Made by a program: the position numbers and the translations under genes. The notes under the pieces were generated by a model. It ran no database searches, was not told the DNA's origin, and worked only from the letters and a program-made list of their open reading frames with translations. Below are positions 22,034-38,014 of a stretch of 64,000 bases of DNA, one piece after another (positions within the stretch are counted from its first letter, which is position 1; the number at the start of each line of letters is the position of its first letter). Source of the stretch: Bacteroidales bacterium (GTDB lineage Bacteria; Bacteroidota; Bacteroidia; Bacteroidales; P3); contig JAKSMO010000003.1 in the NCBI GenBank assembly GCA_024400545.1, forward strand, positions 1,170-65,169, in the 5' to 3' direction.

Positions 22034-22119
22034 ATTTTTGGCGTAAAATCAGGACCAAAAGTCCTATTTTTAGCGTAAATTCGGGACTTACCGTCTCATT
22101 TTTGGCGTAAATTCGGGAC
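22034..22119. repeat. 3 x 22-nt direct repeat, period 32 (atttttGgcgtaaaWtcRggac)
   Basis: Copies at 22034..22055, 22066..22087 and 22098..22119, located upstream of the minus-strand ATPase promoter. Confidence 0.85.
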
Positions 22120-22254
22120 TACACATGAATGGTTGAATTAAAAATAAAAAATAGGAAGTGGCTGCCGCGGCAAAACTCTTTATTTTTCATTCTTCATTCT
22201 GGAGTTGTTAAAACCTCTTTATTTTTATTCTTAATTTTAGGCTCATAAAGCGGT

Positions 22255-22379
22255 ATTCCACAAAAAAAGTGTGGAATAATTCTAAACATTCCACAAAAAA
22301 AGTGTGGAATAATTTCAATATTCCCCAAGAAAAATGTAATTTTCTTAATCTATTCCGCAAAAAAAGTGTATTTTTGCAC
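22255..22379. repeat. 4 x ~27-nt direct repeat, period 32-33 (attccacaaaaaaagtgtggaataatt and degenerate copies)
   Basis: Units begin at 22255, 22288, 22320 and 22352. The first two are identical and each contains the palindrome ttccaca-N7-gtgtggaa. The last unit carries the TATTTTTG -7 box at 22369..22376. Confidence 0.8.
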
Positions 22380-22404
22380 ATTAAACACAAACACCTCAAA
22401 CACC

Positions 22405-23724
22405 ATGAAGAGATTAGTTTACAGCAAGTTAATATCATGGAAAAACAACACCAAGCACAAACCGCTCATCATCCTTGGTGCCCGACAAGTGGGGAAAACC
22501 TACATTTTAAAAGAATTTGGTACAAAAGAATTCGAGTCTATGGTTTACGTCAACTGCCACCGCGATACATTTGCCAAGCAGCTATTCCGAGACCTCAACG
22601 TGGTGCGTATCACGAAAGAGCTGGAACGATATTTCGACACCACTATCGTCCCAGGCAAAACGCTTGTCGTATTCGACGAAATCCAAGAAGTAGAAAATGG
22701 CATCGCCAGCTTGAAATACTTCTGTGAAGACATGCACTCACTGCATGTTGCCGTGGCAGGGTCTTTGTTGGGAATCTCTATCCGCGAAAACGAATCCTAC
22801 CCTGTGGGCAAAGTGCAGACCCTACACATGTTCCCCATGAGCTTCATAGAGTTCCTTATGGCCAGAGGGAAAAATGGCATGGTCGAGACCCTTACCGAGC
22901 TCAACTGGGACATGATGAGTGCCCAACACGAACCACTCATAGAATTGATGCGCGAATACTTTTTTGTGGGAGGCATGCCGGAAGCCGTTGCAGACTACTG
23001 CGAAAACCAAAATCCGACAACGGTACGACAAATACAATCAGAGATACTTGACGCTTACCAACGCGACATAGCCAAGCACACCAAAAACATGGCACAACGC
23101 ATACGCATGGTATGGGACAACATACCGGCACAACTCGCCCGCGAAAACAAGAAATTCATTTTCGGAGCAGTGCGCAAGGGAGGCCGGGCCGCTGATTTCG
23201 AACTAGCACTGCAATGGTTAGCCGAAGCCGGTATCATCACACAGGTGTCCCGAGCCAAGTCAGTCGCCCTTCCATTGAAATTTTATGCCGACCCATCTGC
23301 CTTCAAAGTTTACATGCTCGACTGCGGACTACTCGCATGCATGGCAGGAGCCAACCCCAACGACATGTTACTGGGCACTAATGCCTTTGTCGAATTTAAA
23401 GGAGCTTTTACCGAAAACTACATCCTACAGCAACTCTGTTCAACCTTAGGACGCGACAACATCTACTATTTCGCCAAAGACAACTCAACACAAGAAATCG
23501 ACTTCCTTGTCCAAACACAGGCTAGAACGCTTCCCATCGAGGTCAAGGCCACAGTCAATGTCAAGAGTAAATCGCTGTCAACCTTTATCAACAACGACCA
23601 TGCCGACCAAGGCCTCAAAGGACTGCGTTGCTCCCTCCTACCCTACGCTGACCAAGATTGGATGGAGAACATCCCCCTCTACGCTGCCGAGACTTACTTC
23701 CAACAATATGCTGAATACGTTTAG
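22405..23724 (+). CDS. AAA ATPase, AAA_14 + DUF4143 type
   Basis: The track starts at GTG 22366, and the first ATG at 22405 gives MKRLVYSKLISWK. Walker A is ILGARQVGKTYIL and Walker B is LVVFDEIQ. Confidence 0.8.
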   Translation: MKRLVYSKLISWKNNTKHKPLIILGARQVGKTYILKEFGTKEFESMVYVNCHRDTFAKQLFRDLNVVRITKELERYFDTTIVPGKTLVVFDEIQEVENGIASLKYFCEDMHSLHVAVAGSLLGISIRENESYPVGKVQTLHMFPMSFIEFLMARGKNGMVETLTELNWDMMSAQHEPLIELMREYFFVGGMPEAVADYCENQNPTTVRQIQSEILDAYQRDIAKHTKNMAQRIRMVWDNIPAQLARENKKFIFGAVRKGGRAADFELALQWLAEAGIITQVSRAKSVALPLKFYADPSAFKVYMLDCGLLACMAGANPNDMLLGTNAFVEFKGAFTENYILQQLCSTLGRDNIYYFAKDNSTQEIDFLVQTQARTLPIEVKATVNVKSKSLSTFINNDHADQGLKGLRCSLLPYADQDWMENIPLYAAETYFQQYAEYV

Positions 23725-23758
23725 CCAACCATTTTGATAATTAGCAATCCTCAACACC

Positions 23759-25060
23759 ATGGATTACCTCTACGAAACACGTCGCTTAAAAGAATACTAC
23801 CAAGGACTTGCCAAGGCAGCCGCTTCCATCTTGCCAAAGCAGATGGAAGACGAACTTCGCCAAGACATCGCAGACCCTGCCACCGATCAGCAATATCGCG
23901 AAACCATGTCTTTCTGGGCTTTTGTGTTCCTGCCTTTCTTCAACACCATGGCCTATATTGTCAACAACCGATTCATTCATGAGGATGAGTCCAACATCCT
24001 CGGCGACCTCGACCCTCACAAGCCAACCCTGCCCCCGCAGTCTATCTATCAATTCCTGCTACGTCTCAACCCTATGCCAGCCGAGGAGTTTGTGCGCACC
24101 ATCCAAAGTTCATCTGCCGTCCACGACCACCTTTTAGATGCTCTAACGCAACGCGACGAAGCGCAGTTCTGCACCATCTTGAGCGAGAATCATTGCGGAC
24201 TCGATGTCATCAGCCACCTGTGCAACCAGTTGTGGGACAATGTAAGCGATGTTTTTACATTAGAAGAAAACGAAATACCGATCATGATGGAGGCTTCCCT
24301 TGGCATCACCCGCAGCATCAATGCCTCCACTCCAAACCCCATGATTCCTCACATGGAGCAGGTGGTGCGGTCCGGCGAGCGGCTGGAAGCCGAAGACTCG
24401 GACAAGAATTTCCAGCAGTACATCATTGACTTTAACACCTTTCTCTGCAAATATTTTACCTATCTCATATCGCACTACCTTGACTGGCAAGCGTATTTTT
24501 CCCAGCAAGAAGCCGACCTTCTCAGCCAAATCCTGGCGCGCCCCGAAGGACAGATGCAGTATCAAGCAGCCTTGGCGCAATATCATCAGCAGCAATCCGC
24601 TGCGCACGATGACCTTTCCGCTGCGACCCTGTCCTGGACTCTGCCGTCCGACTTCTTCACCCTTCGTTGCGATGCTGCCCATTGTGAAGAGTATCTTGCC
24701 ATCAACGATGAAATCATCTCGGCCGGTGCCGACAAGTTCGCCCAGCTAATCAACTACTTGGCCGAGAACGACTACATCGGTTCGTCAGCCCAGACCAAAC
24801 AACTTCTGGCCTATCGGCTGGTCGGCAAGATGCGCCCCGATGATGTTGACACGCTAGAATGGCACGGCCACAACAACCAGCCCTACGAGCTCATCTATCT
24901 CATCAAACATCTCTCTGCCCGGGCCAACTACCGCAAGATGCGCCAGTTCTTCACTGGTCCGCAATGGGTCAAAGACCGCGACAGCAGCTATGCCAAGAGT
25001 GCCCATTACGACTTCCGCCGCTTCCTCCACCACCTCTATCCCACCTCATGTCCCCTCTAG
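23759..25060 (+). CDS. Hypothetical protein (433 aa)
   Basis: Long ORF with an ATG start, 35 nt after the ATPase stop. I recognise no motif. Confidence 0.55.
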   Translation: MDYLYETRRLKEYYQGLAKAAASILPKQMEDELRQDIADPATDQQYRETMSFWAFVFLPFFNTMAYIVNNRFIHEDESNILGDLDPHKPTLPPQSIYQFLLRLNPMPAEEFVRTIQSSSAVHDHLLDALTQRDEAQFCTILSENHCGLDVISHLCNQLWDNVSDVFTLEENEIPIMMEASLGITRSINASTPNPMIPHMEQVVRSGERLEAEDSDKNFQQYIIDFNTFLCKYFTYLISHYLDWQAYFSQQEADLLSQILARPEGQMQYQAALAQYHQQQSAAHDDLSAATLSWTLPSDFFTLRCDAAHCEEYLAINDEIISAGADKFAQLINYLAENDYIGSSAQTKQLLAYRLVGKMRPDDVDTLEWHGHNNQPYELIYLIKHLSARANYRKMRQFFTGPQWVKDRDSSYAKSAHYDFRRFLHHLYPTSCPL

Positions 25061-25262
25061 CTCTGCATCCTTACAGTCATGCTTTATGTCGGGGCGAACA
25101 AGTATATAAGTTTATGAGGGACTGGCTTAGTAGCATAATTGATTTGGCGCAGAAGTTGGCAACTTCTTCCGTTTTTAAGAAGGAGGGGGGCAGCCTCACG
25201 CCTGCAGAAAATCAGTTTGTGATAAAAGACCTCTAGGACTTGGCGAATAACGGTACCCTGAC

Positions 25263-25826
25263 TTAGTGCGAATCCAGCTCACCCACAAAATACCTTTTTG
25301 CCGTTTCTGCCGTGGCTTTATATTTGTTCTTAATGAGATACTGAAGCGTTGCTTGGAGCGACCTCATTTCAGGAACATCCTTCATGCCCCAGAAAAGCTT
25401 TGTGAACCTAGAGTCCAAATTGGATGTATTCTGCTTGGATTCTGACAAGAAATTCTTAAAGTCCGTAGGCAAATCATATTTTTCCAAACTTATCTTATTC
25501 TCAGCCGCATTATCAAGAATAAACTTATCAATTGCAGGATTAATTGTGATCAGATATTGTGAGCGACTATTATGCTTGAATAATGTCAGATGACTTGTTT
25601 CTGCAATCTTGCTGCATTGGCTAAAGAAATTATTCTTGCGATGCTGAACACGATCCAAGTCGATAATACCTATAGCGAACCTATCTTTGAACGTATTGTT
25701 CAAACTTCCAATTACATTGTTGCAACCATGCTGATGATTAACCGTACCATGTACTAAGGTCTGTATCAGATTTGTGTCAACGAAACACTCTGGGATAACT
25801 TCTGGATGGTCTAATTTATTCTTCAT
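25263..25826 (-). CDS. Small partner protein of the upstream ATPase, possibly PIN/Toprim-like
   Basis: 187 aa with a 4-nt overlap with the ATPase gene. The N-terminal ECFVDTNLIQTLV and the later GIIDLD are acidic motifs reminiscent of PIN/Toprim nucleases. This is a weak call made by eye only. Confidence 0.6.
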   Translation of the reverse strand: MKNKLDHPEVIPECFVDTNLIQTLVHGTVNHQHGCNNVIGSLNNTFKDRFAIGIIDLDRVQHRKNNFFSQCSKIAETSHLTLFKHNSRSQYLITINPAIDKFILDNAAENKISLEKYDLPTDFKNFLSESKQNTSNLDSRFTKLFWGMKDVPEMRSLQATLQYLIKNKYKATAETAKRYFVGELDSH

Positions 25827-27007
25827 AGATATGCTTCAAAATTAAAAAACAAATCAACCCCATTATAAATCGTATCCTCAATCATATCCTCGGAGAATGA
25901 GACAACATCATATTGATCATCATCGATTGGTCTTGTCATATATAATCGAAAATCTTTCGGACGATACTCCAACATTTGATTTAGCACATAAGGGCTATGT
26001 GTTGTCACGAAAATGGTATGCTTCCTATCACCGGCCATCAACCGATCCAGAATCCAGTTGATGAACTTATACTGAGTTGGAGGAAATAGGTTGTTTTCAG
26101 GTTCCTCTAGGAATATTTCGCTATGGTCAGTCTTTAGCAATCGATTCACATAACCATTAAATTTCTCTCGCTCCTCTTCAGTGCTAAACAGGTACGATTG
26201 CAGCTTGCTATTGAGGTAAAATTCAGTAGTCACTTTCTTTGAACCGCTTTTGGTTGCAAGACAACGGTTATAAATGATGTCGAATGTATGCTTGATTTCT
26301 GCGACCTTATTCAAGGAAAGATTTTGGAGATTCTTCTTTTCATCATCAAAGATTCCATTAAGAAGATAGTCCGTATGCACAAACAAAGGCATAAGCGACT
26401 GAATACCGCTGGATGTTTCAGCCAATTCCAATTCTTTACCACTTTTGAGAACAACAAGATCTTTCTCCTCTGTAGAATCAAAGTGGTAGTTTATTCCTAG
26501 ATTTAGTACGTTTTCTGTAGCGGCTTTGCTTCTTCGCGAAACATCCCACTCTTCCATAAATTCTTGAAGATGCGGGGATACATTTGACAAACCTTTATAA
26601 TCTTTAAAGAGAGAAACAACATTTCTGTCAGATGTGATGTAAGAAACTTTTGGTCTACAGTACCTCCAAGCGTTTCTATTCGTTTTGCAAGAGAATTTTG
26701 CCCTGGGCTTAGCATTGTCAAACGCAAACTTAAGATATGTGGTGCTATATTCAATATAAGAATCTTGTTTCAGGTAATTTCCCATGCCGTAATAATTGAT
26801 CAGATGCTCAATAAAGCAATTCTCCTTCTCAAAATAATCAGAAGATTGGAGTAGCATTATTCTTTTCTCTACCCATGAGCAGAAGCTAGCAATACGCAAG
26901 ATAGAACTTTTCCCCGAACTCTGCACGCCAAAAATCACATTCACCCGATCCAGTTCTATGTCGGCGTTACGTAGCGGTCCAAATCTTTTTACAATCAGAT
27001 GTTTCAT
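25823..27007 (-). CDS. ABC-like P-loop ATPase (AAA_21-type)
   Basis: 394 aa. Motifs: Walker A GVQSSGKSS, LEEPENNLFP, and H-loop TTHSPYVL. Confidence 0.75.
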   Translation of the reverse strand: MKHLIVKRFGPLRNADIELDRVNVIFGVQSSGKSSILRIASFCSWVEKRIMLLQSSDYFEKENCFIEHLINYYGMGNYLKQDSYIEYSTTYLKFAFDNAKPRAKFSCKTNRNAWRYCRPKVSYITSDRNVVSLFKDYKGLSNVSPHLQEFMEEWDVSRRSKAATENVLNLGINYHFDSTEEKDLVVLKSGKELELAETSSGIQSLMPLFVHTDYLLNGIFDDEKKNLQNLSLNKVAEIKHTFDIIYNRCLATKSGSKKVTTEFYLNSKLQSYLFSTEEEREKFNGYVNRLLKTDHSEIFLEEPENNLFPPTQYKFINWILDRLMAGDRKHTIFVTTHSPYVLNQMLEYRPKDFRLYMTRPIDDDQYDVVSFSEDMIEDTIYNGVDLFFNFEAYL

Positions 27008-27089
27008 TATATTTCAATCGTTTGCGAGACACAACTGTAAGTCGATGCTGCGGCATGCAGAATCAAGTTGGTATACTTTTTTTCAGTTG

Positions 27090-27097
27090 CAAAGATA
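27090..27097 (-). promoter_or_regulatory. -7 promoter box (TATCTTTG on the minus strand) for the ATPase/partner operon
   Basis: The plus strand reads caaagata. The box is 83 nt upstream of ATG 27007. Confidence 0.45.
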
Positions 27098-27629
27098 CGA
27101 TTTTTTTTCAAAATACTGCTTTTGTTTGTTTAAAACCAACTTAAATTATGAATCATTGGTGATGTTCGGCACAAAAAATCCTCTCAGCATTTCACTAAGG
27201 AGATGAAATGAAAAAAGTGATACAATGTGTCGTTTTGTCAAGTTGTCATTTTGTAATTTTTTCAATTCTTTCCAAGCAAGCTTGGCTAGAAGGACTGAAA
27301 GAAATTATCAGAAATGTTCCAGAAATTATTGACAACTAGCAATTTCTGATTAACAATGACTTTCTCGGATTTTCACTGGAAATCCTCGTCTTTCAGTGCA
27401 TAAGTTTCGCTTGCGAAACTTAAATAATCCAATTATTAGAGGCTACGCAGAATTATCCGAAGTAACCAACTTCAGGGCGTATTGTAGCGAAATCTGGTCT
27501 ATTGGAGAATATCTGACAACAACCGCGTCAGCCATCTCGCTCTTTTTGAGGGAGGGGGTGGGGCAGGGCGTTTCATGGCTATAGTTACCTATAATTGCCT
27601 ATGGCTCGACGAATCCGAGGATTTTTTTG

Positions 27630-27637
27630 TACTTTTG
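27630..27637 (+). promoter_or_regulatory. -7 promoter box (TACTTTTG)
   Basis: Matches TAnnTTTG and is preceded by a T-run. It is the first of three same-strand boxes upstream of the operon. Confidence 0.35.
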
Positions 27638-27737
27638 CAACACCTAAACAGAGCAGCGCGACACAAATAAAAGACTGAATCATATTGCTTTGGAAAGGAA
27701 AGTCAAGGAGCAAAGGCATTGTTTCAAAAAAAGTGCG

Positions 27738-28060
27738 TATCTTTGCACTCGGAAAACGGCGAGCGACATGCCGTTTCCACACAAAGGTAGCATTACTATC
27801 GTCAGTGTATAGGAATTTGCCCAAATCCCATTGCCAACATGACGAGAAACCGGTGCCTTACTACTTGACGAATGTTCTCGGCGAGAGCCGTTGGACATAT
27901 CCTCCAAGCATAGTACTAGGTCTGAAATCTCTGTTGGCAAGGTCGGGCAAAACCTCTATACGCAGCGATCAGGACCCCGGTTCTATGCTTTTTCTTTGTG
28001 TCACCCGCTCAGCAGAGACACCCACAATACTCCGCCTTGACAGGTTGCAGAACATGAAAA
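27738..28060 (+). ncRNA. Leader-like unit A: promoter box plus a ~300-nt non-coding transcript homologous to the operon 5' UTR
   Basis: TATCTTTG box at 27738..27745. A 5' hairpin pairs GGAAAACGGC with GCCGTTTCC (27751..27778). An internal helix pairs AAGCATAG (27906..27913) with CTATGCTT (27983..27990). The conserved box ggttctatgctttttctttgt lies at 27979..27999. The only ORF is a 3-codon ATG-AAA-AAT-TAA. Confidence 0.4.
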
Positions 28061-28106
28061 ATTAAGAAAAATTTGCAAATAAAGGCTCAGTATCAAAAAA
28101 AATGTG

Positions 28107-28435
28107 TATCTTTGCACCCGGAAATGGAAGAGAGTTTATTCCATTTTCATGCAGCGAAAGCATTTGTATAGGCCGTGAACTAAAAATCGCCAATTTTTAC
28201 AACAGAAGGTCTAGATACTGATGCCTTTCTATTACTTATCGTGCAAGTATGTGTCCCTATCATACTTCTCTTTAAGCATAGAATCGAAGGTCTTCTCAGT
28301 CTCTGTTTCTGTTAGGTGTTTGGCGATACCTTAGTTCCGCGGAGACGATACACCAGAGTTCTATGCTTTCTTTGTACCCAATTATTAACCGCCAACCCGG
28401 GAACTCTGTACGGCAACAAAAAGCATAATAAGCCT
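28107..28435 (+). promoter_or_regulatory. Leader unit B: promoter box plus a ~320-nt structured 5' UTR of the operon
   Basis: TATCTTTG box at 28107..28114. A 5' hairpin pairs GGAAATGGAA with TTCCATTTTC (28120..28148). A helix pairs AAGCATAGAA (28274..28283) with TTCTATGCTT (28359..28368). The unit runs into ATG 28436. Confidence 0.45.
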
Positions 28436-28657
28436 ATGCCGATATTCAGAATCACAGTAAAGAATCCCAAGTTCACCAGTGGAGTCAGGGTGGAGAAAGG
28501 CATGTCTGTAGATGTGGTCACCAACAGCATGGTCAACCCTGTCACAACCAATGGCGGCCAAGAAGTAGCCAACGCCTTTATGAGAATCTACGGAATCGAC
28601 ATCAAAAAAGTCGGTGCCCTCAACATGGCTTATTTGGATGTAGAACGAATTAACTAA
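28436..28657 (+). CDS. Small protein P1 (73 aa)
   Basis: The track ORF starts at GTG 28316 inside the leader. The first ATG at 28436 gives MPIFRITVKNPKFTSGVRVEKGMSVDVV... Confidence 0.55.
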   Translation: MPIFRITVKNPKFTSGVRVEKGMSVDVVTNSMVNPVTTNGGQEVANAFMRIYGIDIKKVGALNMAYLDVERIN

Positions 28658-28671
28658 AATAAATCAAAAAT

Positions 28672-29256
28672 ATGATTGATAATATTCTATTAAATGCAAG
28701 TTCTAATGGGATTGGCCCTTTAGGATGGATTATTATTGGTGGTATAGCGATTGGTGGAGCTGCTTATTGGGCAAAAAAAGGAGAAAAGGATCAAGGTCAA
28801 ACCTCGAGTTCAAATCCCGAGCCAGATTCAAAACCCCATGTCCTATCAGACACACCAAACCAAGTTGAAGCGAAGAAGACTTTCTTGAACAATATTAACG
28901 TCTTCATTCCATTATTAAGATGTACCTCGGACACTAGAGAATCGAAAGATGCTTGGACTGACGCGATTATTGGTACAAATGACTTCAACTTGATTTCTTA
29001 TTGGAAATTGTGTTCCACCAAACCCTTTTCTACTTGGCGCAATGTGCTTGCTTCATGGGGGATAAAAGCAGAGACGTGCACAAGCTTCGTTTACGGTGAT
29101 TTGCTCAAGGGAATGTACATCACACATAACAAATCTGACTTAATTGTTGGCAAAGAATATATTGTTGTTGAACCTTGTTGGTTACAAACTTATGAAGACA
29201 GCAAAGGGAAAACAGTTAAAAGAATACTTTTAGCTGGCGTCGTAAGAGAAAAATAG
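28672..29256 (+). CDS. P2: single-pass membrane protein with a glycine-zipper TM (194 aa)
   Basis: The N-terminal GPLGWIIIGGIAIGGAAYWA is followed by a polar linker and a ~120-aa domain. It starts 14 nt after P1. Confidence 0.6.
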   Translation: MIDNILLNASSNGIGPLGWIIIGGIAIGGAAYWAKKGEKDQGQTSSSNPEPDSKPHVLSDTPNQVEAKKTFLNNINVFIPLLRCTSDTRESKDAWTDAIIGTNDFNLISYWKLCSTKPFSTWRNVLASWGIKAETCTSFVYGDLLKGMYITHNKSDLIVGKEYIVVEPCWLQTYEDSKGKTVKRILLAGVVREK

Positions 29257-29279
29257 ATTCCCTAAAAATAAGATTGAAC

Positions 29280-29870
29280 ATGGCAAAACTTCATACCTAT
29301 AACATTTGCTTTATCGGTAGAACAGGCAACGGGAAAACAAGCTTAATAAACGCATTGTTTAACACCCAATTTCCGACTGACACTCTTGTTGCATGCACAA
29401 AAGAAATGTATTCAGTCACCACTATGGATATCCACCCTATTGGATATGATGCAACAAGTGTTTATGACACACCTGGTATCGGAGAGTTTTCAACAAACGA
29501 CCGATACCAACGGTACTACGAGGATGCAGTTGCAAAAGCCAATTGTGTGGTACTTGTCACAACAATGGATCGTACAGATGCACCTGCCCAACGATTACTG
29601 ATGAGCCTAAAGCAAATTGCACATGAGAGAGACACCAAATTTGTAATTGCTCTCAACCATATTGACTCTAGAATCGTGGCAGACAATGACGAATATAATC
29701 CATGGGACGATAACACAAACTCACCAACAGAATCATGTTTGGCTAAGGTGCAAGAAAGAATTACAATTATCCAGCAGAAATTTGACAACAAGTTTTTGCC
29801 TTTTAATGTAATTCCTGTTTGTGCGAAAAGGAAATACAATATTGACCAATTATTACATATACTATTATGA
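29280..29870 (+). CDS. P3: small TRAFAC GTPase (MMR_HSR1-like)
   Basis: The track starts at TTG 29274, and ATG 29280 gives MAKLHTYNICFIG. Motifs: G1 GRTGNGKTS, G3 DTPGIG, G4 variant LNHID, G5-like VCAK. Confidence 0.75.
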   Translation: MAKLHTYNICFIGRTGNGKTSLINALFNTQFPTDTLVACTKEMYSVTTMDIHPIGYDATSVYDTPGIGEFSTNDRYQRYYEDAVAKANCVVLVTTMDRTDAPAQRLLMSLKQIAHERDTKFVIALNHIDSRIVADNDEYNPWDDNTNSPTESCLAKVQERITIIQQKFDNKFLPFNVIPVCAKRKYNIDQLLHILL

Positions 29871-30691
29871 GTGACCAAAACGAGTATAAATTCCTAGTTG
29901 AACAGATTTTTGCTGCCATTTTAGGAAATAATGTTTCTCAAGAAGATAAAGAAAAAGTCTTCGGAGCATTGGACAAAGAAATCAAGGATAAGCCATTTAG
30001 GGTTGCCGTTATCGGACAGTCCGGTGTTGGAAAATCAACCACGTTAAACGCGGTTTTTGGATTGGAAAATTACACCTCCAGTGTTGCCGAGGGCACAACG
30101 GATATCATCGAAAAAGTGTTCCCTATGAGAGATGGGTTTAACCTCTCGATTTATGATATGCCTGGGCTAAATAATGATGTTGACAAAGACATCGAGTACG
30201 AGAAAATGTATCAGAAGATTCTTCCGGAATGTGATGTAATTGTCTATATTATCAATGCCCATTCAAGAGATTTGGGTGAAGATTGTAGAATCCTAAAAGA
30301 TGTGGTCTTACCTATTTGCTCTGAAAATAAATTGATGGATAATCTAATTCTAGCATTTAACAAGATAGACACCATTGGAGAAACAGAAGACCCTAATGAC
30401 CCAGAACTTCAATGGGATATAGTGCGGAACCTTCCAACAGAAAAGCTGAAAAAGGCCATAAAAATCAAATTGTCTGATTTGAATGATAAATTAATTGATG
30501 AGCAATTGGTAATGAACGGTGTAGAAAATGCCATCTCAACCGACAAGGTTGTGTTTTATTCTGCACAGTTTAACTACAATCTAGGATGCCTTCTCGAAGC
30601 TATCACTAAAGCTGGTAAACGAGGCTGGATTTGGACTGCGACAGTTGGCTTTGAAAGAATCGGCAAATGGAGCGACAAACGATTGATGTAA
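29867..30691 (+). CDS. P4: small TRAFAC GTPase (MMR_HSR1-like)
   Basis: 274 aa with an ATGA overlap with P3. Motifs: G1 GQSGVGKST, G2 EGTTD, G3 DMPGLN, G4 FNKID. Confidence 0.75.
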   Translation: MSDQNEYKFLVEQIFAAILGNNVSQEDKEKVFGALDKEIKDKPFRVAVIGQSGVGKSTTLNAVFGLENYTSSVAEGTTDIIEKVFPMRDGFNLSIYDMPGLNNDVDKDIEYEKMYQKILPECDVIVYIINAHSRDLGEDCRILKDVVLPICSENKLMDNLILAFNKIDTIGETEDPNDPELQWDIVRNLPTEKLKKAIKIKLSDLNDKLIDEQLVMNGVENAISTDKVVFYSAQFNYNLGCLLEAITKAGKRGWIWTATVGFERIGKWSDKRLM

Positions 30692-30696
30692 AATCT

Positions 30697-31107
30697 ATGG
30701 CAAAACTCAATCTATGGAAATATGAATCTTTTCTATCCAAACATGATACTGGTAATATGACAGAAGAACAAAAAAGACAATACAATGAATTGTCCCCAAA
30801 TGGGAAAGCTGAGTACTTAAAGTCAATGGAAAGACATCCTGATTGGTCTCATAATCAACATATGGCCAAAGTTTCTATTATGGAACAAGCTGACGCAACT
30901 ATTGAGGATGGCGGTGTAAATGTAAATCCTAGTGACCCAAAACTGTGGAAAATTGTTTTGGAAAAGGCCAGCTCATTTTTGCATACAATCGGTGCTCTAA
31001 CTAAAGAAATCAAACAAAAATTTGACTATGCTCTTGGCGCAATTAAGTCGTTAATTTCCATGGGCGTAAAAAAAATTGGAGATATCATAACCTCTATTTT
31101 TGGCTAA
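30697..31107 (+). CDS. P5: small helical protein, paralog of P6
   Basis: The likely start is MAKLNLWKYE at ATG 30697; the track start 30667 overlaps P4. It shares the core HPDWS..GG.(N/D).(N/D)P.DP.L.K with P6. Confidence 0.6.
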   Translation: MAKLNLWKYESFLSKHDTGNMTEEQKRQYNELSPNGKAEYLKSMERHPDWSHNQHMAKVSIMEQADATIEDGGVNVNPSDPKLWKIVLEKASSFLHTIGALTKEIKQKFDYALGAIKSLISMGVKKIGDIITSIFG

Positions 31108-31160
31108 GCAAACTGCTACTAAATATAGAATAATAACTTATTTACTTAATTATAATTCAT

Positions 31161-31487
31161 ATGAATAACGAACTGTTCGAAAACATGAAAAAACTCCATC
31201 CTGATTGGAGTGATGCGCAAATTTGGACTGCCATTAGCTTGGACATGGAAAGTGAAAAGCAAATTGAAAAAGGCGGGAAAGACATTGACCCTAATGACCC
31301 TGGCCTGTTAAAGTCCATTGTAGCAGGTGCTAGAGCATGGCTCAAAGAAGTTCTTCCGATTATTTTCGAGAAAGTAAAAGCATTCTTTGATTACATCAAA
31401 GACCATATCGGAGAGTGGGTCGCTGCTGGTCTTGAGGCTGTTAAGAGATGGATTGGCGAAATCCTGCCTACATTTATCGGCTTCTAA
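31161..31487 (+). CDS. P6: small helical protein, paralog of P5
   Basis: 108 aa. LHPDWSDAQIWTAISLDMESEKQIEKGGKDIDPNDPGLLKSIV aligns with the P5 segment RHPDWSHNQHMAKVSIMEQADATIEDGGVNVNPSDPKLWKIVL. Confidence 0.6.
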   Translation: MNNELFENMKKLHPDWSDAQIWTAISLDMESEKQIEKGGKDIDPNDPGLLKSIVAGARAWLKEVLPIIFEKVKAFFDYIKDHIGEWVAAGLEAVKRWIGEILPTFIGF

Positions 31488-31501
31488 TCAAGTTGTGTCG
31501 A

Positions 31502-31532
31502 AAATAGGGGATAGCCTTGCTTTCCCCTATTT
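31502..31532 (+). promoter_or_regulatory. Intra-operon hairpin with a 9-bp stem
   Basis: AAATAGGGG (31502..31510) pairs with CCCCTATTT (31524..31532) around a 13-nt loop. No T-run follows. Confidence 0.45.
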
Positions 31533-31583
31533 CCGATACATATGAACTACCCAGACTAAAGTTAAACAAGCGTAATACGTATT

Positions 31584-32216
31584 ATGGCTGAAAAAGAAGT
31601 TTCTCAGAGTACAATAATGAAAGCAATGGACTGGGCATACGACAAAGCTGTGAACGGAATCCCAGGTTTTGACTCAGCAGAGGACATGGCTCACGACTAT
31701 CTTCAAGGAGATGGATCATTAAGAGATAAGGCCAATCGATTGATTCGATGGCAAAATGCAAAGTCAGGAACATCAGGATTTGTAACTGGCCTTGGTGGAC
31801 TACTAACATTGCCACTCACTCTTCCTGCAAATATTACTAGTGTGTTATATGTCCAGATTAGAATGATTGCCGCAATCGCAAAGATGGGAGGATATGACCT
31901 TAAAGACGACCGCGTAAAATCATTAGTATATTCTTGCTTGGTGGCCACCTCTGCTGCTGATGTGGTAAAGCAAACAGGACTAAAAATAGGCGAGAAAATT
32001 GCAGTCAATGCCGTCAAAAACATATCAAAAGAAACAATAAAACAAATTAATGCAAAAGTTGGATTTAAGCTCTTTACAAAGTTCGGAGAGAAAGGGGTAA
32101 TCAACATTGGTAAAACCATTCCAATTTTAGGAGGTCTTATTGGTGGTATTTTTGATGTTGTCAGCACCAATACTATCGGCAATGTTGCAAGAGACACATT
32201 CATCCCTAGACCTTAG
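31584..32216 (+). CDS. P7: EcsC/DUF697-like protein with glycine-zipper segments (tentative)
   Basis: 210 aa, with GTSGFVTGLGGLLTLPLTLPANITSVLYVQIRMIAAIAKMGG and IPILGGLIGGIFDVVS. The family assignment is by eye only. Confidence 0.55.
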   Translation: MAEKEVSQSTIMKAMDWAYDKAVNGIPGFDSAEDMAHDYLQGDGSLRDKANRLIRWQNAKSGTSGFVTGLGGLLTLPLTLPANITSVLYVQIRMIAAIAKMGGYDLKDDRVKSLVYSCLVATSAADVVKQTGLKIGEKIAVNAVKNISKETIKQINAKVGFKLFTKFGEKGVINIGKTIPILGGLIGGIFDVVSTNTIGNVARDTFIPRP

Positions 32217-32302
32217 TTCAAATAACACACGCTGATGTCAATTGGCAGCCTGATAAAACAGTAAATATCAAATTCTTTCGTTTTTCAAGGAAAACCAATT
32301 AC

Positions 32303-32719
32303 ATGAAAATAGAATTATCATTTGAAGAGATTCTGTCGGTTTTGGCAGATAATTATAACATTCCGAGCCTTAGAGTGACACAAGTTGACGAGAACACCAT
32401 CAAAATTGCCAAACCTTTATTGATTGTTTCTCCGTCCGTGAAGGTCTCAATTATGGATGTGAGCGATAATGATATTATCATTCATCAAAACAAGCTAACC
32501 ACAGCAGCTACTAAGATTCTCGATTTCTTTGGTTCCAATATTAACACATCAGTTGTAAGCATGGCCGATGACAGAATCACTATTCACCTAAAGCAAATCC
32601 CTCAACTGGCCAAAGTACTTGAGAAAGTAAACCTTGAAAACATTCGATTTACGAATGATTCTGTAGTCTTGAACTTGTCAGCAGTTCATCCACTTAAATT
32701 CAAGACGAATTTATCATGA
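32303..32719 (+). CDS. P8: hypothetical protein (138 aa)
   Basis: ATG-initiated ORF on the same strand. I recognise no motif. Confidence 0.5.
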   Translation: MKIELSFEEILSVLADNYNIPSLRVTQVDENTIKIAKPLLIVSPSVKVSIMDVSDNDIIIHQNKLTTAATKILDFFGSNINTSVVSMADDRITIHLKQIPQLAKVLEKVNLENIRFTNDSVVLNLSAVHPLKFKTNLS

Positions 32720-32752
32720 AACCAAAATCAGACATACTTAATACATACTTTT

Positions 32753-34486
32753 ATGATAAATGAAGACACTCTTATTGATCTGACACTGGAGGTTGCCAAA
32801 TATTATTTCAAGAAAAACAACCCCATTCTAAAAGAGGCAAAAGTCTCTGTTGATCGTGTAGCAGCAAAGCACCTCAGCCAGAAGCTTATGGATGTTATAA
32901 AAAAACATGCTAATGTTGTTTCGTTGGCGGGCATGGCAGATGCTATTCCTGCGGTAGGAGCGGCTGTGGACATTGGCGCAGTGATAGCATCCACATGGAA
33001 AATGTATGCTGGGATAAATGAATGTTTAGGAATCTCTATCTCCGAAAATAAATTGAAGTCCATGGCATCCGGGGTAGTGTCAAATTTAGCTGGCAATGGA
33101 GTTGGGTATGCGGCGCATTCTGTGGCGAATGGGGTCGCCACATCAGTTCCAATATTTGGCAATGTTGTAGGTGCCGTCTGTGGTTGTGTGGTCAACCGTG
33201 CGTCATTATATACTTCAGCTGCGACTTATCTGAATATTATGTGTAAGATAATGTCTTCTGGTGGCACATTTGATGAAAATTCATTGTCCGACCTTACCAG
33301 TAACAATCGGCACATATGGAATGATCCCTATTCTGAAGTTATCAACATAGGAACGATAGGGCATGCAGGGCACGGAAAGTCAACGCTGACGGCTGCTATA
33401 ACTCAGGTTTTAGCCTGTTATGGGACATGCGAAACTGTGTCGGTAAGAGATTTGGATCGTGCACCTAATGAAATCCAACAGGGTGTTTCTATCCAGACGG
33501 CCCATATAGGATACGCCATTAATGACATTCAGTTCCATCACATTGACTGTCCTGGTCATGCTAACTATGTGAAGAATATGATTGTAGGATCAAGCCAAAT
33601 GGATGCGGCCATACTTGTTGTTGCTGCAACTGATGGTCCAATGCCACAAACACGAGAGCACCTCTTATTAGCACGACAAAATGGAATAAAAAAAATAATA
33701 GTATTCCTGAACAAAATTGAGGTAATAGATGATGATGATTTACTCGATTTAGTTGAATTCGAGATTAGAGAACTATTAGATACTTATGATTATGATGGAA
33801 CCAGCACACCCATCATAAGAGGCTCGGCATTGCAAGCACTCAAGGGCAATCGAACTGCAATTCAATCAGTCGAAAACCTAATCCATGAAATGAGTTTGTT
33901 GCCCTTACCCAAAAGATGTATTTCAAAACCATTCAGACTACCTGTTGAGAAAGCAATACCGATAGACAATTACACTGTACAAATTATGGGTACTGTCAAT
34001 ACTGGCAGAATCACTATTGGGGAAAAAATTGATATTGTTGGATTAATGAATGAATCAATTACTGCCAGTGTGATGTCTATCCAAGTTGATAACCATGATT
34101 CTTCATATTGCCAAGCAGGAATGTACGCCTCTCTCATATTAAATGGAGATTTCAAAAACAAAGTGAAAAGAGGGGCTACTGCAGCAGCAATAGATACAGT
34201 CTACCCATCATCCTGCTTTGAGGCTTCTGCTTATATTTTAAAAAAGGAAGAAGGTGGACGCCAAACTGCATTTCGCAATAACTATCAACCTCAATTTTAC
34301 ATCGGAACAGCAAACATAACAGGCACAATTTCACTTCCTGATAGTAGAATCCTGGCCAACCCCGGCGACAACCTCACGTTCAAGGTAAAATTAAGTATGC
34401 CTTTGGCAATTAATCAGTACGAAAGGTTTTCCATGAGAGATAATGGCAAAACTATTGGGGCAGGAATAATAACAAAATTACTTTAA
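32753..34486 (+). CDS. P9: divergent EF-Tu paralog (all three domains) fused to a ~190-aa N-terminal glycine-zipper domain
   Basis: 577 aa. From ~aa 195 it is collinear with EF-Tu. Matching segments are INIGTIGHAGHGKSTLTAAIT (G1), DCPGHANYVKNMI (G3), ILVVAATDGPMPQTREHLLLARQ, IIVFLNKIEVIDDDDLLDLVEFEIRELL (G4 region), PIIRGSALQAL (G5) and the C-terminus GKTIGAGIITKLL. The N-terminus carries AIPAVGAAVDIGAVIAS and VPIFGNVVGAVCGCVVN. Confidence 0.85.
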   Translation: MINEDTLIDLTLEVAKYYFKKNNPILKEAKVSVDRVAAKHLSQKLMDVIKKHANVVSLAGMADAIPAVGAAVDIGAVIASTWKMYAGINECLGISISENKLKSMASGVVSNLAGNGVGYAAHSVANGVATSVPIFGNVVGAVCGCVVNRASLYTSAATYLNIMCKIMSSGGTFDENSLSDLTSNNRHIWNDPYSEVINIGTIGHAGHGKSTLTAAITQVLACYGTCETVSVRDLDRAPNEIQQGVSIQTAHIGYAINDIQFHHIDCPGHANYVKNMIVGSSQMDAAILVVAATDGPMPQTREHLLLARQNGIKKIIVFLNKIEVIDDDDLLDLVEFEIRELLDTYDYDGTSTPIIRGSALQALKGNRTAIQSVENLIHEMSLLPLPKRCISKPFRLPVEKAIPIDNYTVQIMGTVNTGRITIGEKIDIVGLMNESITASVMSIQVDNHDSSYCQAGMYASLILNGDFKNKVKRGATAAAIDTVYPSSCFEASAYILKKEEGGRQTAFRNNYQPQFYIGTANITGTISLPDSRILANPGDNLTFKVKLSMPLAINQYERFSMRDNGKTIGAGIITKLL

Positions 34487-34504
34487 TATTTTCATAGATA
34501 TTCG

Positions 34505-34873
34505 ATGAAATCAAACTCCATTGAATTTAATCAGAACGCACGGCGGGTTTATACTGCGGTGAGGCATACTTTTGAGACTTGCGATATGTTTCATCGGGTG
34601 AAGTGCGACGATATGAACTTTGTGATTACTGCCAAGCATGGGGCTAGTCTGCTGGCTTTGGGTGAGAATATCAAGGTGAGGGTGGTGGCAACTAGCACCC
34701 AAAGCAGCAAGGTGGTGGTGGAGTCGGGCAACCAATTCCCCATCAACATCCTCAACATAGGGCAGAACAAGCAGAACGTCACCACCCTCACCGAGTTCAT
34801 AGCCAACCGTGTATATCGACTCTGCAGCGATGAGGAAATCAAATTGCGCCCTACAGAAATCAAATTCAAATAG
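34505..34873 (+). CDS. P10: hypothetical protein (122 aa)
   Basis: It starts 18 nt after P9 on the same strand and is visibly more GC-rich than P1-P9. I recognise no motif. Confidence 0.5.
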   Translation: MKSNSIEFNQNARRVYTAVRHTFETCDMFHRVKCDDMNFVITAKHGASLLALGENIKVRVVATSTQSSKVVVESGNQFPINILNIGQNKQNVTTLTEFIANRVYRLCSDEEIKLRPTEIKFK

Positions 34874-35169
34874 TCTCCTTGCTTCTGTTGAGTAGGGCCC
34901 GCAATACTATGCGCTTTTAATAATAGAATTGACTTCAGGCCCCAATGTGGCTTTAAATCCCCTAGGTTTTTACTACTCTCACTACAGTTACGGTCATTCT
35001 ACGGAGATGCTACGGACTTGGAACGGTTATGCACAAGCGGACCTACACCGTAAGATCACCGCAGGATGACCGTAGGATGACTGAACTTGCAACGAAACTT
35101 TGGGTGAACGGCAACCTTAACGAGCACTTGAATGAGCGGAGTTAAGGGCTGGAAGCCTTTGCGGTTTGA

Positions 35170-35245
35170 TGGAGCGATAGACGGGGTTCGAACCCGCGAC
35201 CTGCGGCTTGGGAAGCCGCCGCTCTGCCAACTGAGCTACTATCGC
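35170..35245 (-). tRNA. tRNA-Gly (anticodon CCC), CCA encoded
   Basis: The reverse complement is GCGATAGTAGCTCAGTTGGCAGAGCGGCGGCTTCCCAAGCCGCAGGTCGCGGGTTCGAACCCCGTCTATCGCTCCA. It folds as a cloverleaf: 7-bp acceptor stem, GCTC/GAGC D stem, GCGGC/GCCGC anticodon stem with loop TTCCCAA, and T-loop TTCGAAC. Confidence 0.93.
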
Positions 35246-35334
35246 ATGAGGGTGTCTGCCTTCGATGTCGGGAGACAGACACCTTATATTAACTCGCCTT
35301 TTTATTTTTTATTGTACAAAAGGCAAAAGTTTTT

Positions 35335-37611
35335 TTAGTGACGATGATTTTCGCCATCGCTGCGACGACGGTCGCCTTCACGACGGGGACCACGATCGCC
35401 TTCGCGACGAGGGCCACGGTCGCCATCACGGCGGGGACCGCGATCGCCATCACGACGAGGACCACGAGGACGCTGTTCTTCCTCTACATAGCCTTCGGGC
35501 TTGGGCAGAAGGGCCTTGCGGCTGAGCTTGAGCTTGCCGTTCTTTTCGTCGATAGCGATAATCTTGACCTGGACGGTGTCACCCACATTGAGGAGACCTT
35601 CGAGGGTCTCGGTGCGGGCGTAGTCGTACTCGGAGATGTGCATGAGACCTTCCTTACCGGGGAGGAACTCGAGGAATGCGCCAAACTCAACGATGCTGAC
35701 AACCTTTGCGTCATAGACCTGACCGACCTCGGGCACAGTGCAGATTTCTTTGATCCACTTGAGGGCAGCCTCGATGGAAGCCTTGTCGGCAGATGCGATA
35801 TCGACAATACCCATGCCGTCTTTCTCTTCGATATTGATGATGGAGCCAGTCTCTTTCTGGATTTTCTGGATAACCTCGCCACCCTTGCCGATAACAGCGC
35901 CGATGAAGTCTTTGGCAATCTGAATCTGAACGATACGGGGCACGAAGGGTTTGTAATCCTCGCGAGGCTGTTCGATAGTGCTCTGGATGTGGTCGAGGAT
36001 GTGGAGACGACCCTGGCGAGCCTGCTCAAGAGCCTTGGCAAGTACGTCGTAGCTGAGACCATCAACCTTGATATCCATCTGGCAAGCGGTGATACCATCG
36101 CGGGTACCGCAGACCTTGAAGTCCATGTCGCCAAGGTGGTCTTCATCGCCGAGGATGTCGGAGAGGACGGCCCACTTATCACCCTTGGAGATAAGGCCCA
36201 TGGCGATACCGGCAACGGGCTTGCGAATCTGCACACCAGCGTCCATCAATGCCAAGCAGCCTGCGCATACGGTGGCCATGGAGCTGGAGCCGTTGGACTC
36301 GAGAATATCGGAGACAACGCGGATGGTATAGGGGCAGTCGGACTCTGCGGGAAGGACTTCCTTAAGGGCGCGCCATGCAAGGTGGCCATGACCAACCTCA
36401 CGACGGCTGAGGCCGCGGTTGCCCTTGACCTCGCCAGTAGCGAAACCGGGGAAGTTGTAGTGGAGGAGGAAACGGCGGGTGCCTTCGACCACAGCACCAT
36501 CGATGACCTGCTCGTCGAGCTTGGTGCCGAGGGTGACGGTGGAGAGGGACTGGGTCTCACCACGGGTAAAGATGGCGCTACCGTGAGCGGAGGGCAGATA
36601 GCTGACTTCGCTCCAGAGAGGGCGGATCTCGTCGAGCTGACGGCCGTCGAGACGGGTGCGCTCGGCCAGCACCATATCGCGCATAGCTTCGCGCTCGGTG
36701 TCGTGGTAGTAGCGGTCGATCATGAACTGGATTTCGTCGGTAAGGGTTTCCTCGGTATAGTTGGCCTCGATGAATTCCTGCTTGATGGCAGCAAAGCCTT
36801 CTTCGCGCTGATGCTTGTTGGCAATGCCCTGCTTGGAGAACTCGTAGCATTTCTGATAGACGGCATCGCGGACACGCTGGCGGAGCTCTTCGTCGTTGAC
36901 CTCGTGGCAGTATTCGCGCTTCTCGGTCTTGCCGGCCTCGATGGTGAGTTCGGCAATGGCGCGGCACTGGATCTTGATAGCCTCGTGAGCGGCCTTGAGG
37001 GCGTTGAGCATAACGTCTTCGCTGACTTCCTTCATCTCACCTTCTACCATCATGATATTGTCTTCGGTAGCGGCAACGATGAGGTCGAGGTCGGCACGTT
37101 CGATATCCTGCATGGGAGTGTTGATGACATACTGACCATCGAGATAGGATACGCGAACTTCGGAAACGGGGCCATTGAAGGGGATGTCGGACACTGCGAG
37201 AGCGGAAGCTGCAGCGAGAGCGGCAAGCTGGTCGGGCATGGTGTTGGCATCGCCAGAGATGAGGGTGATCTGAACCTGGACTTCGGCATGGAAGTTATCG
37301 GGGAAGAGGGGACGGAGAGCGCGATCGACGAGACGAGCAATGAGAATCTCGTGCTCGGAGGGGCGCTGCTCACGCTTGAAGAAACCGCCGGGGAAACGTC
37401 CCATGGCGGCATACTTCTCCTGGTAGTCAACAGTAAGGGGCATGAAATCGACATTCTCGCCCACTTCGCGCTTGGAGCACACGGTGGCAAGAAGCATGGT
37501 GTCGTTCATACGTACAACGGCGGAGCCGTCGGCTTGTTTGGCAAGTTTGCCAGTTTCGATTTCGACCATGCGGCCATCGCCGAGGTCGAATTTTTTGGTG
37601 ATAATGTTCAT
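35335..37611 (-). CDS. pnp: Polyribonucleotide nucleotidyltransferase (PNPase) with an Arg/Gly/Asp-repeat C-terminal tail
   Basis: 758 aa. It has two RNase PH-like halves, then KH ([11 protein letters not shown]) and S1 ([20 protein letters not shown]) domains. The gene lies immediately downstream of rpsO. Confidence 0.93.
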
Positions 37612-37683
37612 TTTCTTTTCCTTTCAGTTTCTTTTATTCCTCTACATGCCACACCGTGCGGCATGCACTTGGTATTTGATTGT

Positions 37684-37715
37684 AAAAAAAGACTCCCGGA
37701 GAACCCAGGAGTCTC
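37684..37715 (-). terminator. rpsO terminator / pnp leader hairpin
   Basis: The minus strand reads GAGACTCCTGG-GTTCT-CCGGGAGTC followed by TTTTTTT. Confidence 0.7.
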
Positions 37716-37744
37716 AACCATAACCAAATAAATATGAAAAACTA

Positions 37745-38014
37745 TTACTTTCTTAAGTTGAGTTTCTTGATGATGGCACGATAACGCTCGATATCGTTGG
37801 CTTTGAGGTAGTCGAGCAGACGACGACGCTTACCTACGAGGGTGACGAGCGCACGCTCACTGACCTGGTCTTTCTTGTTCTTCTTCATGAGTTCGGTGAG
37901 ATGCTGAATTCTATAGGTGAAAAGAGCGATCTGTGCCTCGATAGAACCAGTATCCTGAGCATTTTTGCCATATTCAGCAAAGATTTCTTCTTTTTTTTCT
38001 TTAGTTAGATACAT
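37745..38014 (-). CDS. rpsO: 30S ribosomal protein S15
   Basis: 89 aa, with MYLTKEKKEEIFAEYGKNAQDTGS..LVGKRRRLLDYL. Confidence 0.93.
   Translation of the reverse strand: MYLTKEKKEEIFAEYGKNAQDTGSIEAQIALFTYRIQHLTELMKKNKKDQVSERALVTLVGKRRRLLDYLKANDIERYRAIIKKLNLRK

Follow-up and report, generated by a model that had tools for sequence, protein, structure and literature searches.

Two small GTPase genes overlap in a 64,000-nucleotide stretch of DNA from a Bacteroidales bacterium (GenBank assembly GCA_024400545.1, contig JAKSMO010000003.1, positions 1,170 to 65,169), referred to here as the window, and the question that this locus raises is what the two genes belong to and whether their products work together. 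P3 (29280..29870, + strand; ATG start, TGA stop) encodes a bare G domain of 196 amino acids (aa), and P4 (29867..30691, + strand; ATG start, TAA stop) encodes a G domain of 274 aa with N- and C-terminal extensions. An earlier reading of the window made from its letters alone (the sequence-only reading) had described the two as a coupled pair of stand-alone GTPases, in which one subunit may regulate the other. As set out below, P3 and P4 are an obligate pair, and they form the centre of a conserved cassette of five genes (P2-P6) that is rare and horizontally mobile in gut Bacteroidales.

The P3-P4 pair and the five-gene cassette

Related loci were collected in two ways. For the genome loci, a profile scan of one genome per species, in which loci were picked through P4, gave 14 true P4 loci; a scan with the P4 sequence alone gave no match, and the 14 loci came from the alignment-based scan. 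For the metagenome loci, the scan was picked through P3 and gave 51 further loci, 50 of which are assessable for P4. Some of the 65 assessable loci are duplicates of one contig, e.g. L011 and L112. P4 lies directly after P3 in 14/14 genome loci, in 50/50 assessable metagenome loci and, over all assessable loci, in 65/65, a recurrence far beyond chance. The gap between the P3 stop and the P4 start is short, with a median of about 5 nucleotides (nt) and a length of at most 50 nt in 61 of the 65 loci. In the window, the P4 ATG (29867-29869) and the P3 TGA (29868-29870) share bases 29867-29870, as the sequence-only reading had stated. However, an ATGA overlap is present in only four of the 65 loci, and two of these (L011 and L112) are apparently the same contig. 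Tight spacing is therefore a conserved trait of the pair, but the overlap itself is not.

A P2-like gene lies directly 5' of P3 in all 14 genome loci (in L007 as judged by clustering) and in nearly all metagenome loci with upstream sequence. Downstream, every genome locus that extends far enough has a single P5-like gene together with one or two that are P6-like, and with the metagenome set included P5/P6 genes are found there in nearly all loci, P5 itself in most. The conserved cassette consists of these five genes. Identities to the window proteins are 42-76 % for P4, 47-63 % for P3, 26-59 % for P6, 26-40 % for P2 and 25-40 % for P5, indicating that the P2 anchor and P5 evolve fastest. All 14 genome P4 loci are from Bacteroidales of the gut or rumen.

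Both P-loops, both DxxG motifs and the difference between NHID in P3 and NKID in P4, all described in the sequence-only reading, were read again from the translations. In P3, GRTGNGKTS is at residues 13-21, DTPG at 63-66 and NHID at 126-129; in P4, GQSGVGKST is at residues 50-58, DMPG at 97-100 and NKID at 165-168. The full P3 set is G1 GRTGNGK(T/S), switch I ACTKE, G3 DTPG followed by Ile, G4 NHID and G5 VCA, and all of these motifs are invariant or nearly so among 120 homologues. P4 begins with two N-terminal helices that lead into the G domain (GQSGVGKS, EGTT, DMPG followed by Leu, NKID and YSA), carries an insert between G4 and G5 made up of a DPNDPELxW loop and a long helix, and ends in a conserved, Trp-rich tail (KAGKRGWIW.ATVGFE..GKWSD in an alignment of 27 homologues). 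The Walker B Asp is present in both (D63 of P3 in 120/120 homologues; D97 of P4 invariant), but the catalytic Gln is absent, its place being taken in the homologue alignments by an invariant I67 after DTPG in P3 and by Leu or Ile after DMPG in P4.

MMR_HSR1 is matched at 42.3 bits by P3 and 52.5 bits by P4, against a Pfam gathering threshold of 21.9 bits, and the two proteins are 25 % identical to each other (E 1e-8). AlphaFold2 monomer models are confident G-domain folds, with a predicted local distance difference test score of 89.6 for P3 and 83.0 for P4. The P3 model ends with the G domain, whereas the P4 model adds about 45 N-terminal residues, seen as two extra helices, and about 30 C-terminal helical residues, with the C-terminal tail at low confidence. 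A large protein collection contained 254 homologues of P3 and 229 of P4, of similar lengths, and many of these are encoded on contigs of equal length.

Some loci depart from the standard gene structure. P4 paralogues that are about 62 % and 76 % identical to the window P4 lie in tandem after P3 in L094, L096, L100, L101 and L114, so that three GTPase genes stand in a row. The P3 gene of L142 (8001-8562) and the P4 gene of L120 (2242-3049) were each matched as two pieces in different frames, which suggests frameshifted copies or assembly errors.

P2 (28672..29256, + strand; 194 aa), the first gene of the cassette, encodes one N-terminal transmembrane (TM) helix at about residues 17-33, which is glycine-rich in the hydropathy analysis. 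Next come KKGEK and about 130 aa that form a C-terminal domain, probably cytoplasmic under the positive-inside rule. P5 (30667..31107, + strand) is a small all-helical protein; its longest open reading frame (ORF) encodes 146 aa, but its orthologues begin at a Met matching position 30757, which leaves about 116 aa. P6 (31161..31487, + strand; 108 aa) is a P5 paralogue found in one or two copies per cassette elsewhere, and comparison of the two families with hhalign gave a probability of 99.7 % (E 1.6e-26). P5 and P6 have a conserved HP(D/N)WS motif and a (D/N)PxDP loop in common, and both are hydrophobic at the C-terminal end (...IITSIFG in P5). The loop is also found in P4, and reads DPNDPELQW in P4 (30389-30415, residues 175-183), NPSDPKLW in P5 (about 30925-30939) and DPNDPGLL in P6 (about 31287-31301). 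It is present in 25/27 P4, 6/13 P5 and 4/16 P6 sequences and does not occur in 57,802 residues of neighbouring ORFs. P2, P5 and P6 have no match in Pfam, NCBIfam, PADLOC or PHROGs. In the ESM Atlas, P2 matches unnamed Bacteroidota clusters alone and P6 one such cluster.

Relatives on plasmids and prophages, and likeness to dynamins

P3 and P4 are related to the GTPases of Escherichia coli prophages that the sequence-only reading had named for comparison, with YkfA of E. coli K-12 matching the P4 profile at E 1.9e-18 and the P3 profile at E 9e-12. In BLASTP comparisons with YkfA, identity is 30 % over 91-103 residues and the N-terminal half of the G domain alone aligns. YkfA, which is carried by the CP4-6 prophage, is itself 42-43 % identical to plasmid GTPases. 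A tblastn search of plasmids found relatives with 24-30 % identity over 80-92 % of P4. ColE1-type plasmids of 4.8-5.9 kb from E. coli, Salmonella and Klebsiella carry such relatives, in some cases beside an EcsC gene, and on one E. coli plasmid a relative follows a WYL gene in surroundings that resemble CP4. Prophages, plasmids and islands often carry small, stand-alone GTPases of the YkfA type, and to our knowledge none has a known function. P3 and P4 are intact G domains of the YkfA-like, dynamin-related part of the TRAFAC GTPases; they are distant kin of YkfA and, in the G domain alone, of LeoA-type dynamins.

Proteins of the YkfA/YfjP/YeeP type are, like P3 and P4, stand-alone small G domains on mobile elements (the CP4 cryptic prophages of E. 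coli and plasmids). P3 shares the ACT(K/R)E switch I with the YkfA-type relatives, and the G4 motif lacks Lys in YkfA (SQSD), in the plasmid copies (NQxD) and in P3 (NHID). An insert between G4 and G5, consisting of a W...N.P loop and then a helix, is common to the cassette GTPases and the YkfA type. The YkfA-type motif set used here (switch I, G4 without Lys and a hydrophobic C-terminal tail) was derived from few sequences and is not a published definition. However, YkfA-type proteins are the products of single genes, are about 290 aa long, end in a hydrophobic tail (...VWDFFF) and have no P2, P5 or P6 partners. P3 has neither the extensions nor the tail, and P4 has EGTT, NKID and a different, Trp-rich tail.

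Adjacent GTPase pairs were also found on proteobacterial plasmids, in Photobacterium, Acinetobacter and Comamonas. As with P3 and P4, each pair combines two paralogous small GTPases, one long and one short, whose genes lie 3-50 nt apart in accessory DNA. The Photobacterium pair adjoins Csm6/Cas1/Cas2 and one proteobacterial pair adjoins a RelE/ParE pair. They differ in that the long gene precedes the short one, both members have NQxD, the long member ends in a glycine-zipper tail, and there are no P2-, P5- or P6-like genes. Their members are 44-47 % identical to each other, compared with 25 % for P3 and P4, and P3 and P4 each score higher with single YkfA-like GTPases (80-99 bits) than with one another (40 bits), which indicates that paired paralogues arose more than once. 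In addition, representatives of about 400 aa (P0308, P0325, P0328, P0343 and P0376) have a degenerate G-like domain, without an intact P-loop/DxxG set, fused before an intact G domain.

The tails of the long proteobacterial and YkfA-type GTPases (L079, L080, L081 and L087-L090) are hydrophobic or glycine-zipper sequences that end in ...VWGLLFG, ...SKLKFW, ...SRIFSWF, ...SSFFGW, ...KSIFGF or ...AVWDFFF, and they resemble membrane-targeting sequences. P5-type ends (...WIFD, ...SIFG) look like these tails, but profile comparison gave no homology, and the idea that P5 and P6 are split-off C-terminal tails of proteobacterial GTPases found no support, at an hhalign probability of <1 % with only three sequences per tail set.

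Phage collections contained little. There was one weak match in INPHARED, phrog_16468, a PHROG without an assigned function, matches P4 (E 7e-17), and no relative was found in the IMG/VR phage collection. As these searches were nearly empty, a phage origin was rejected for the cassette, though not for the wider GTPase family.

The best PADLOC matches are LeoBC for P3 (E 8e-14) and LeoA for P4 (E 2e-10), and in both cases the G domain alone is covered; the same G domains are the best PADLOC matches of the plasmid and YkfA-type relatives. Dynamin_N is matched by P3 and P4 at 29.9 bits (cut-off 27), covering only residues 9-46 and 92-133. In structure comparisons the P3 fold is generic, with SelB, Era, Der and Rab tied at Z 15.5-17.4. 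The longest structural alignments of P4 are with IRG proteins, BDLP and LeoA, with Z about 14-15.6 over 212-232 residues including the N-terminal helices, but these values are tied with those of Rag and Era, and Foldseek and VIA-align single out no GTPase family for either protein.

Bacterial dynamin pairs (LeoA/LeoBC of Eleos and Cj-DLP1/2) resemble P3 and P4 in that two GTPase genes share one operon, and BDLP and LeoA align with the N-terminal helices and the G domain of P4 (Z 14.2-14.7 over 212-217 residues). Bacterial dynamin-like genes are mostly paired, and hydrolysis depends on heterotypic G-dimerization (PMC6104087). Dynamin pairs of this kind associate with membrane. In the Leo operon one dynamin is split into two genes (PMC4159319), and both P-loops are required in a two-dynamin defence system (10.1101/2022.05.11.491447). 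However, these dynamins are 550-700 aa long, and neither P3 nor P4 has a neck, trunk or paddle. Lacking the stalk, they are not members of the dynamin-like protein family.

The DO-GTPase systems described by Kaur, Burroughs, Iyer and Aravind in 2020 have a Walker B Glu and a GAP1 partner as their defining features (PMC7159879). Like the cassette, they occur in mobile neighbourhoods, Bacteroidetes included, with two paralogous TRAFAC GTPases predicted to form dimers and often with TM components (PMC7159879). P3 and P4 instead have the Walker B Asp (DTPG and DMPG). In Pfam, neither they nor the other operon proteins gave a DO-GTPase or GAP1 match at E <= 0.1, and no GASH partner was found. The model is in the library, as DO-GTPase2 is matched (3.4e-11) by three genes beside the cassette elsewhere. 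Three paralogous genes lie directly 3' of the cassette in L013 (13661-18052), and also in L120, L121 and L124, and the DO-GTPase2 matches are attributed to them by clustering and gene size.

Finally, the IRG (p47) GTPases GM4951, Irga6 and Irgb10 top the structural alignments of P4 (Z 13.8-15.6 over 212-232 residues), and Irgb10 sequence profile matches span P4 residues 5-115. However, P4 has no counterpart of the IRG C-terminal helical domain, identity is 15-20 %, and Z is tied with Rag, Era and BDLP. The likeness may amount to the G domain and an N-terminal helical hairpin and nothing further.

A variable island and its neighbouring genes

The cassette is accessory and not part of the housekeeping gene set. 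The sequence-only reading had seen both proteins as small stand-alone G domains not of the Era/Der type, and this holds: the Pfam scan found no KH or other RNA-binding domain in P3 or P4, and NCBIfam equivalog cut-offs were not reached (Der, 51 against 306.7 bits; MnmE, 49.8 against 252.6; Era, 40.4 against 237). P4 is single copy in its own 2.64-Mb genome, where, besides P3, it matches just two ORFs, whose 440-460 aa correspond to the size of Der or MnmE. Orthologues at core positions in relatives, which that reading had named beforehand as speaking for a housekeeping family, were not found. No P4 orthologue was present in 40 relatives (24 same-genus and 16 same-order genomes), in which the best P4 matches, at E >= 2.5e-10, were long ORFs of mostly 400-520 aa. 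Across the order, 400 genomes sampled from 237 genera contained no P3 orthologue at E <= 1e-25.

Comparison of the DNA at 19000-38900 with 25 genus relatives showed that the flanks alone are conserved, with a uvrA-like gene on one side and tRNA-Gly and PNPase on the other. In two same-genus genomes, G041 (C53:113963-117937) and G021 (C53:23219-27433), the flanks are 160-350 bp apart, and the segment of about 14.8 kb between them in the window is therefore a variable island. It occupies the region 20446-35245 (about 20.4-35.16 kb) and ends at the tRNA-Gly gene (35170-35245). G+C content is 0.37-0.44 at about 25-35 kb, the part that contains the operon, and 0.50-0.60 in the flanks. No integrase was seen in the island.

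Four genes of the island match PADLOC candidate defence families, namely two PDC-S01, one PDC-M29A and one PDC-S29. The two PDC-S01 ATPases (DUF4143; E 5e-85 and 1e-168) and the PDC-M29A ATPase (AAA_15/21; E 1.5e-51) lie within 20724-23724 and 25263-27007, and the PDC-S29 match is P7, an EcsC protein (E 2.8e-89). The PDC-M29A ATPase gene is overlapped by the gene for a 187-aa partner without a known family. The 129 neighbours at the 14 genome loci are mostly core genes, but also include AbiEii, AbiD, PDC-S27, PDC-S01 and the DO-GTPase2 set.

The window holds what we call the short-form operon, with the order DUF6140, P2, P3, P4, P5, P6, P10. The DUF6140 ORF (28316..28657, + strand; Pfam E 4.5e-34) lies 5' of P2 in L001-L004, L006, L015 and eight metagenome loci but is absent from long-form operons, and is probably a frequent short-form neighbour and not a functional partner. 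P10 (34505..34873, + strand; 122 aa) is the next gene after P6 in other short-form loci, following it directly in L001 (82 % identity), L002, L126, L128 and L129. In the window, P7 (EcsC), P8 and P9 (an EF-Tu fusion), at 31488-34486, stand between P6 and P10. Given the position of P10 elsewhere, this block at 31.5-34.5 kb looks inserted into a short-form operon, and none of the three genes is present in the 14 genome or the 51 metagenome loci. EcsC genes stand near the GTPases both in the window operon and on the 5.9-kb E. coli plasmid, but a functional EcsC-GTPase link is a weak lead.

Stand-alone DUF697-like proteins, comparable to the N-terminal domain of the EF-Tu fusion, are encoded beside the cassette in L004 (992-1465), L005 (3453-3824) and L009 (6607-7215), and P8-like proteins in L006 (11918-12310) and L009 (3859-4296), so that these modules are recurring but not fixed parts of the cassette. 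Predicted sigma-70 promoters (25 against 21.9) and terminators (9 against 6.3) were at chance level, and the scans used are unsuited to Bacteroidota.

In about 23 of the 51 metagenome loci and five of the 14 genome loci, P2-P6 lie within a long operon (the long form; for example, L007, L092, L096, L136 and about 25 others). Upstream are a NusG-like gene and a gene for a DUF445 membrane protein, and downstream are genes for an AAA+ ATPase (AAA and AAA_lid_6, with a Sel1-like N terminus) and for a pair of paralogues of about 166 and 240 aa. A DUF1232 membrane protein or a GH25 muramidase (the L132/L133 group) is added in some of these loci, and in three (the L136 group) a genuine Dynamin_N protein of 551-567 aa.

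A possible heterodimer switch and its alternatives

GTPases in which a hydrophobic residue replaces the catalytic Gln (HAS-GTPases) are often activated by dimerization. Since both P3 and P4 have a hydrophobic residue at the position of the Ras catalytic Gln, hydrolysis most likely needs dimerization of G domains across the nucleotide pockets, and since they are always co-encoded a few nucleotides apart, the working unit is most likely a P3:P4 heterodimer. The recurrence of two-G-domain arrangements, in the proteobacterial pairs, the fusions of about 400 aa and the loci with P3, P4 and a second P4, favours a pair. We infer that a heterodimer switch is the best-supported mechanism. P3 and P4 would be the two nucleotide-binding subunits of the P2-P6 cassette, with P2 and the Trp-rich P4 tail tethering their heterodimer to the inner membrane on its cytoplasmic side. 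Binding and hydrolysis of GTP would switch the assembly or membrane action of P5 and P6, which would be the effectors. The link to the membrane is favoured by the P2 TM helix, the conserved P4 tail and, in the long form, the DUF445 and DUF1232 proteins and the Dynamin_N protein. The most likely role of the cassette, at about even odds, would be to defend the cell against phage or other invaders, by remodelling membrane or by abortive infection, and membrane maintenance is the main rival. A defence role is favoured by the accessory status of the cassette, the PADLOC candidates in the island, the AbiEii, AbiD, PDC-S27 and DO-GTPase2 genes near the cassette elsewhere and the position of the Photobacterium pair beside Csm6/Cas1/Cas2. 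Overall, a membrane-held P3:P4 switch that acts with P5 and P6, most probably in defence, seems to us to have an even chance of being correct.

Several points weigh against this proposal. The P3:P4 interface is itself a proposal, and YkfA-like GTPases that occur singly evidently do their work with no paralogue, which leaves room for homodimers. Structure searches do not separate dynamin- or IRG-like proteins from Era, Rag and Rab. The defence context consists mostly of PADLOC candidate families, which are unvalidated, and the neighbours at loci elsewhere are mostly ordinary core genes. The single weak relative in phage genome collections provides no direct link to phage biology. The long-form operon, with its NusG-like and AAA+ genes and in some loci GH25, could equally serve envelope maintenance or vesicles.

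The last of these points leads to the strongest alternative, in which the cassette is a device for membrane maintenance or for vesicles and secretion, where a stalk-less relative of the dynamin pairs, together with an AAA+ ATPase and membrane proteins, repairs, fuses or buds membrane. The gene content of the long form speaks for such a device, as do the DUF1232, GH25 or Dynamin_N proteins added in some loci, and LeoABC has been linked to vesicle-associated secretion (PMC4159319). However, a maintenance function should be more widely spread than the cassette, which is missing from the 400 genomes of the order and the 25 genus relatives, and the short form in the window lies without the extra genes among candidate defence genes. 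We consider this explanation a good deal less probable than a defence switch, though one to be taken seriously.

P3 and P4 might also be unpaired, each acting alone or as a homodimer, with their adjacency reflecting shared operon regulation. YkfA-type GTPases do occur singly on small plasmids and in prophage remnants, and the bit scores given above place P3 and P4 closer to these than to one another. Against this, there is not one locus among the 65 with one gene alone, and paired paralogues and fused tandem G domains arose independently. This makes independent action improbable.

The sequence-only reading had noted the NHID of P3 and proposed that one subunit may regulate the other; taken together, P3 would be a degenerate or re-specified regulatory subunit, with the G4 Lys replaced by His, that controls the canonical GTPase P4. 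NHID is indeed fixed in P3 while NKID is kept in P4, and P3 is without the N- and C-terminal extensions of P4. However, not one of 120 P3 homologues departs from His127, the P-loop Lys, DxPG or the guanine-specifying Asp129, and the switch I Thr is also invariant. To see G4 in the wider family, the P3 profile was compared with 1.84 billion representatives, giving 1127 relatives at E <= 1e-3, of which 244 reach E <= 1e-10 and 11 reach E <= 1e-30. Among the best 150 of those relatives, G4 is NQxD in 39, NKxD in 18, NFxD in 12, THxD in 9, NRxD, TKxD and NCxD in 8 each and NHxD in 7. Both members of the proteobacterial pairs have NQxD, and YkfA of K-12 has SQSD. As Lys is in the minority at G4 across the family, the His is no sign of a degenerate regulatory subunit, and a regulatory role read from it is not supported; we regard a P3 that merely controls P4 as very improbable. 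In Ras-like G domains, the G4 Lys packs on the base and the ribose, and its loss mainly weakens affinity. NHID with its His is a variant fixed in the family, in which the guanine-specifying Asp is retained; the His probably lowers nucleotide affinity without abolishing binding, and a weaker affinity would fit GTPases that cycle without exchange factors.

That P3 and P4 are housekeeping GTPases of ribosome assembly or tRNA modification (the Era/Der/MnmE kind) is barely credible: Era and Der are the solved structures that they match best in sequence (E about 1e-8) and P4 homologues are annotated as '50S ribosome-binding GTPase' in sources, but identity as Era, Der, MnmE, YihA or HflX was rejected because all equivalog scores are far below cut-off, no KH domain is present, the genome has its own genes of Der/MnmE size, there are no orthologues and the island is absent in sister genomes.

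Returning to the heterodimer switch, a more specific version can be drawn, in which the cassette is a fragmented dynamin-like machine. Its five small proteins would supply two G domains, an anchor and helical stalk-like elements, parts that classical bacterial dynamin pairs combine in two large polypeptides, the heterodimer would gate membrane attack or repair by P5 and P6 against phage, and (D/N)PxDP would be the docking motif among P4, P5 and P6. We offer this version as speculation and think it rather unlikely to hold in full.

The five-gene, probably membrane-associated cassette, of which no description was found in the literature searched, is previously undescribed, and P3 and P4 are its nucleotide-binding core. 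For the study of YkfA-type GTPases it provides a setting that is genetically compact and strictly conserved, in which two GTPases come with an anchor and two or three helical partners. A G4 motif without Lys is normal in the YkfA-like family, and we advise caution against over-reading such substitutions. If the cassette does encode a heterodimeric defence switch, dynamin-like immunity (Eleos, Mx, IRG) would extend to proteins that consist of a G domain only, and the orphan 'GTPase family proteins', a large family, would gain a function. A system native to gut Bacteroidales, a group with poorly charted phage defences, would also be added.

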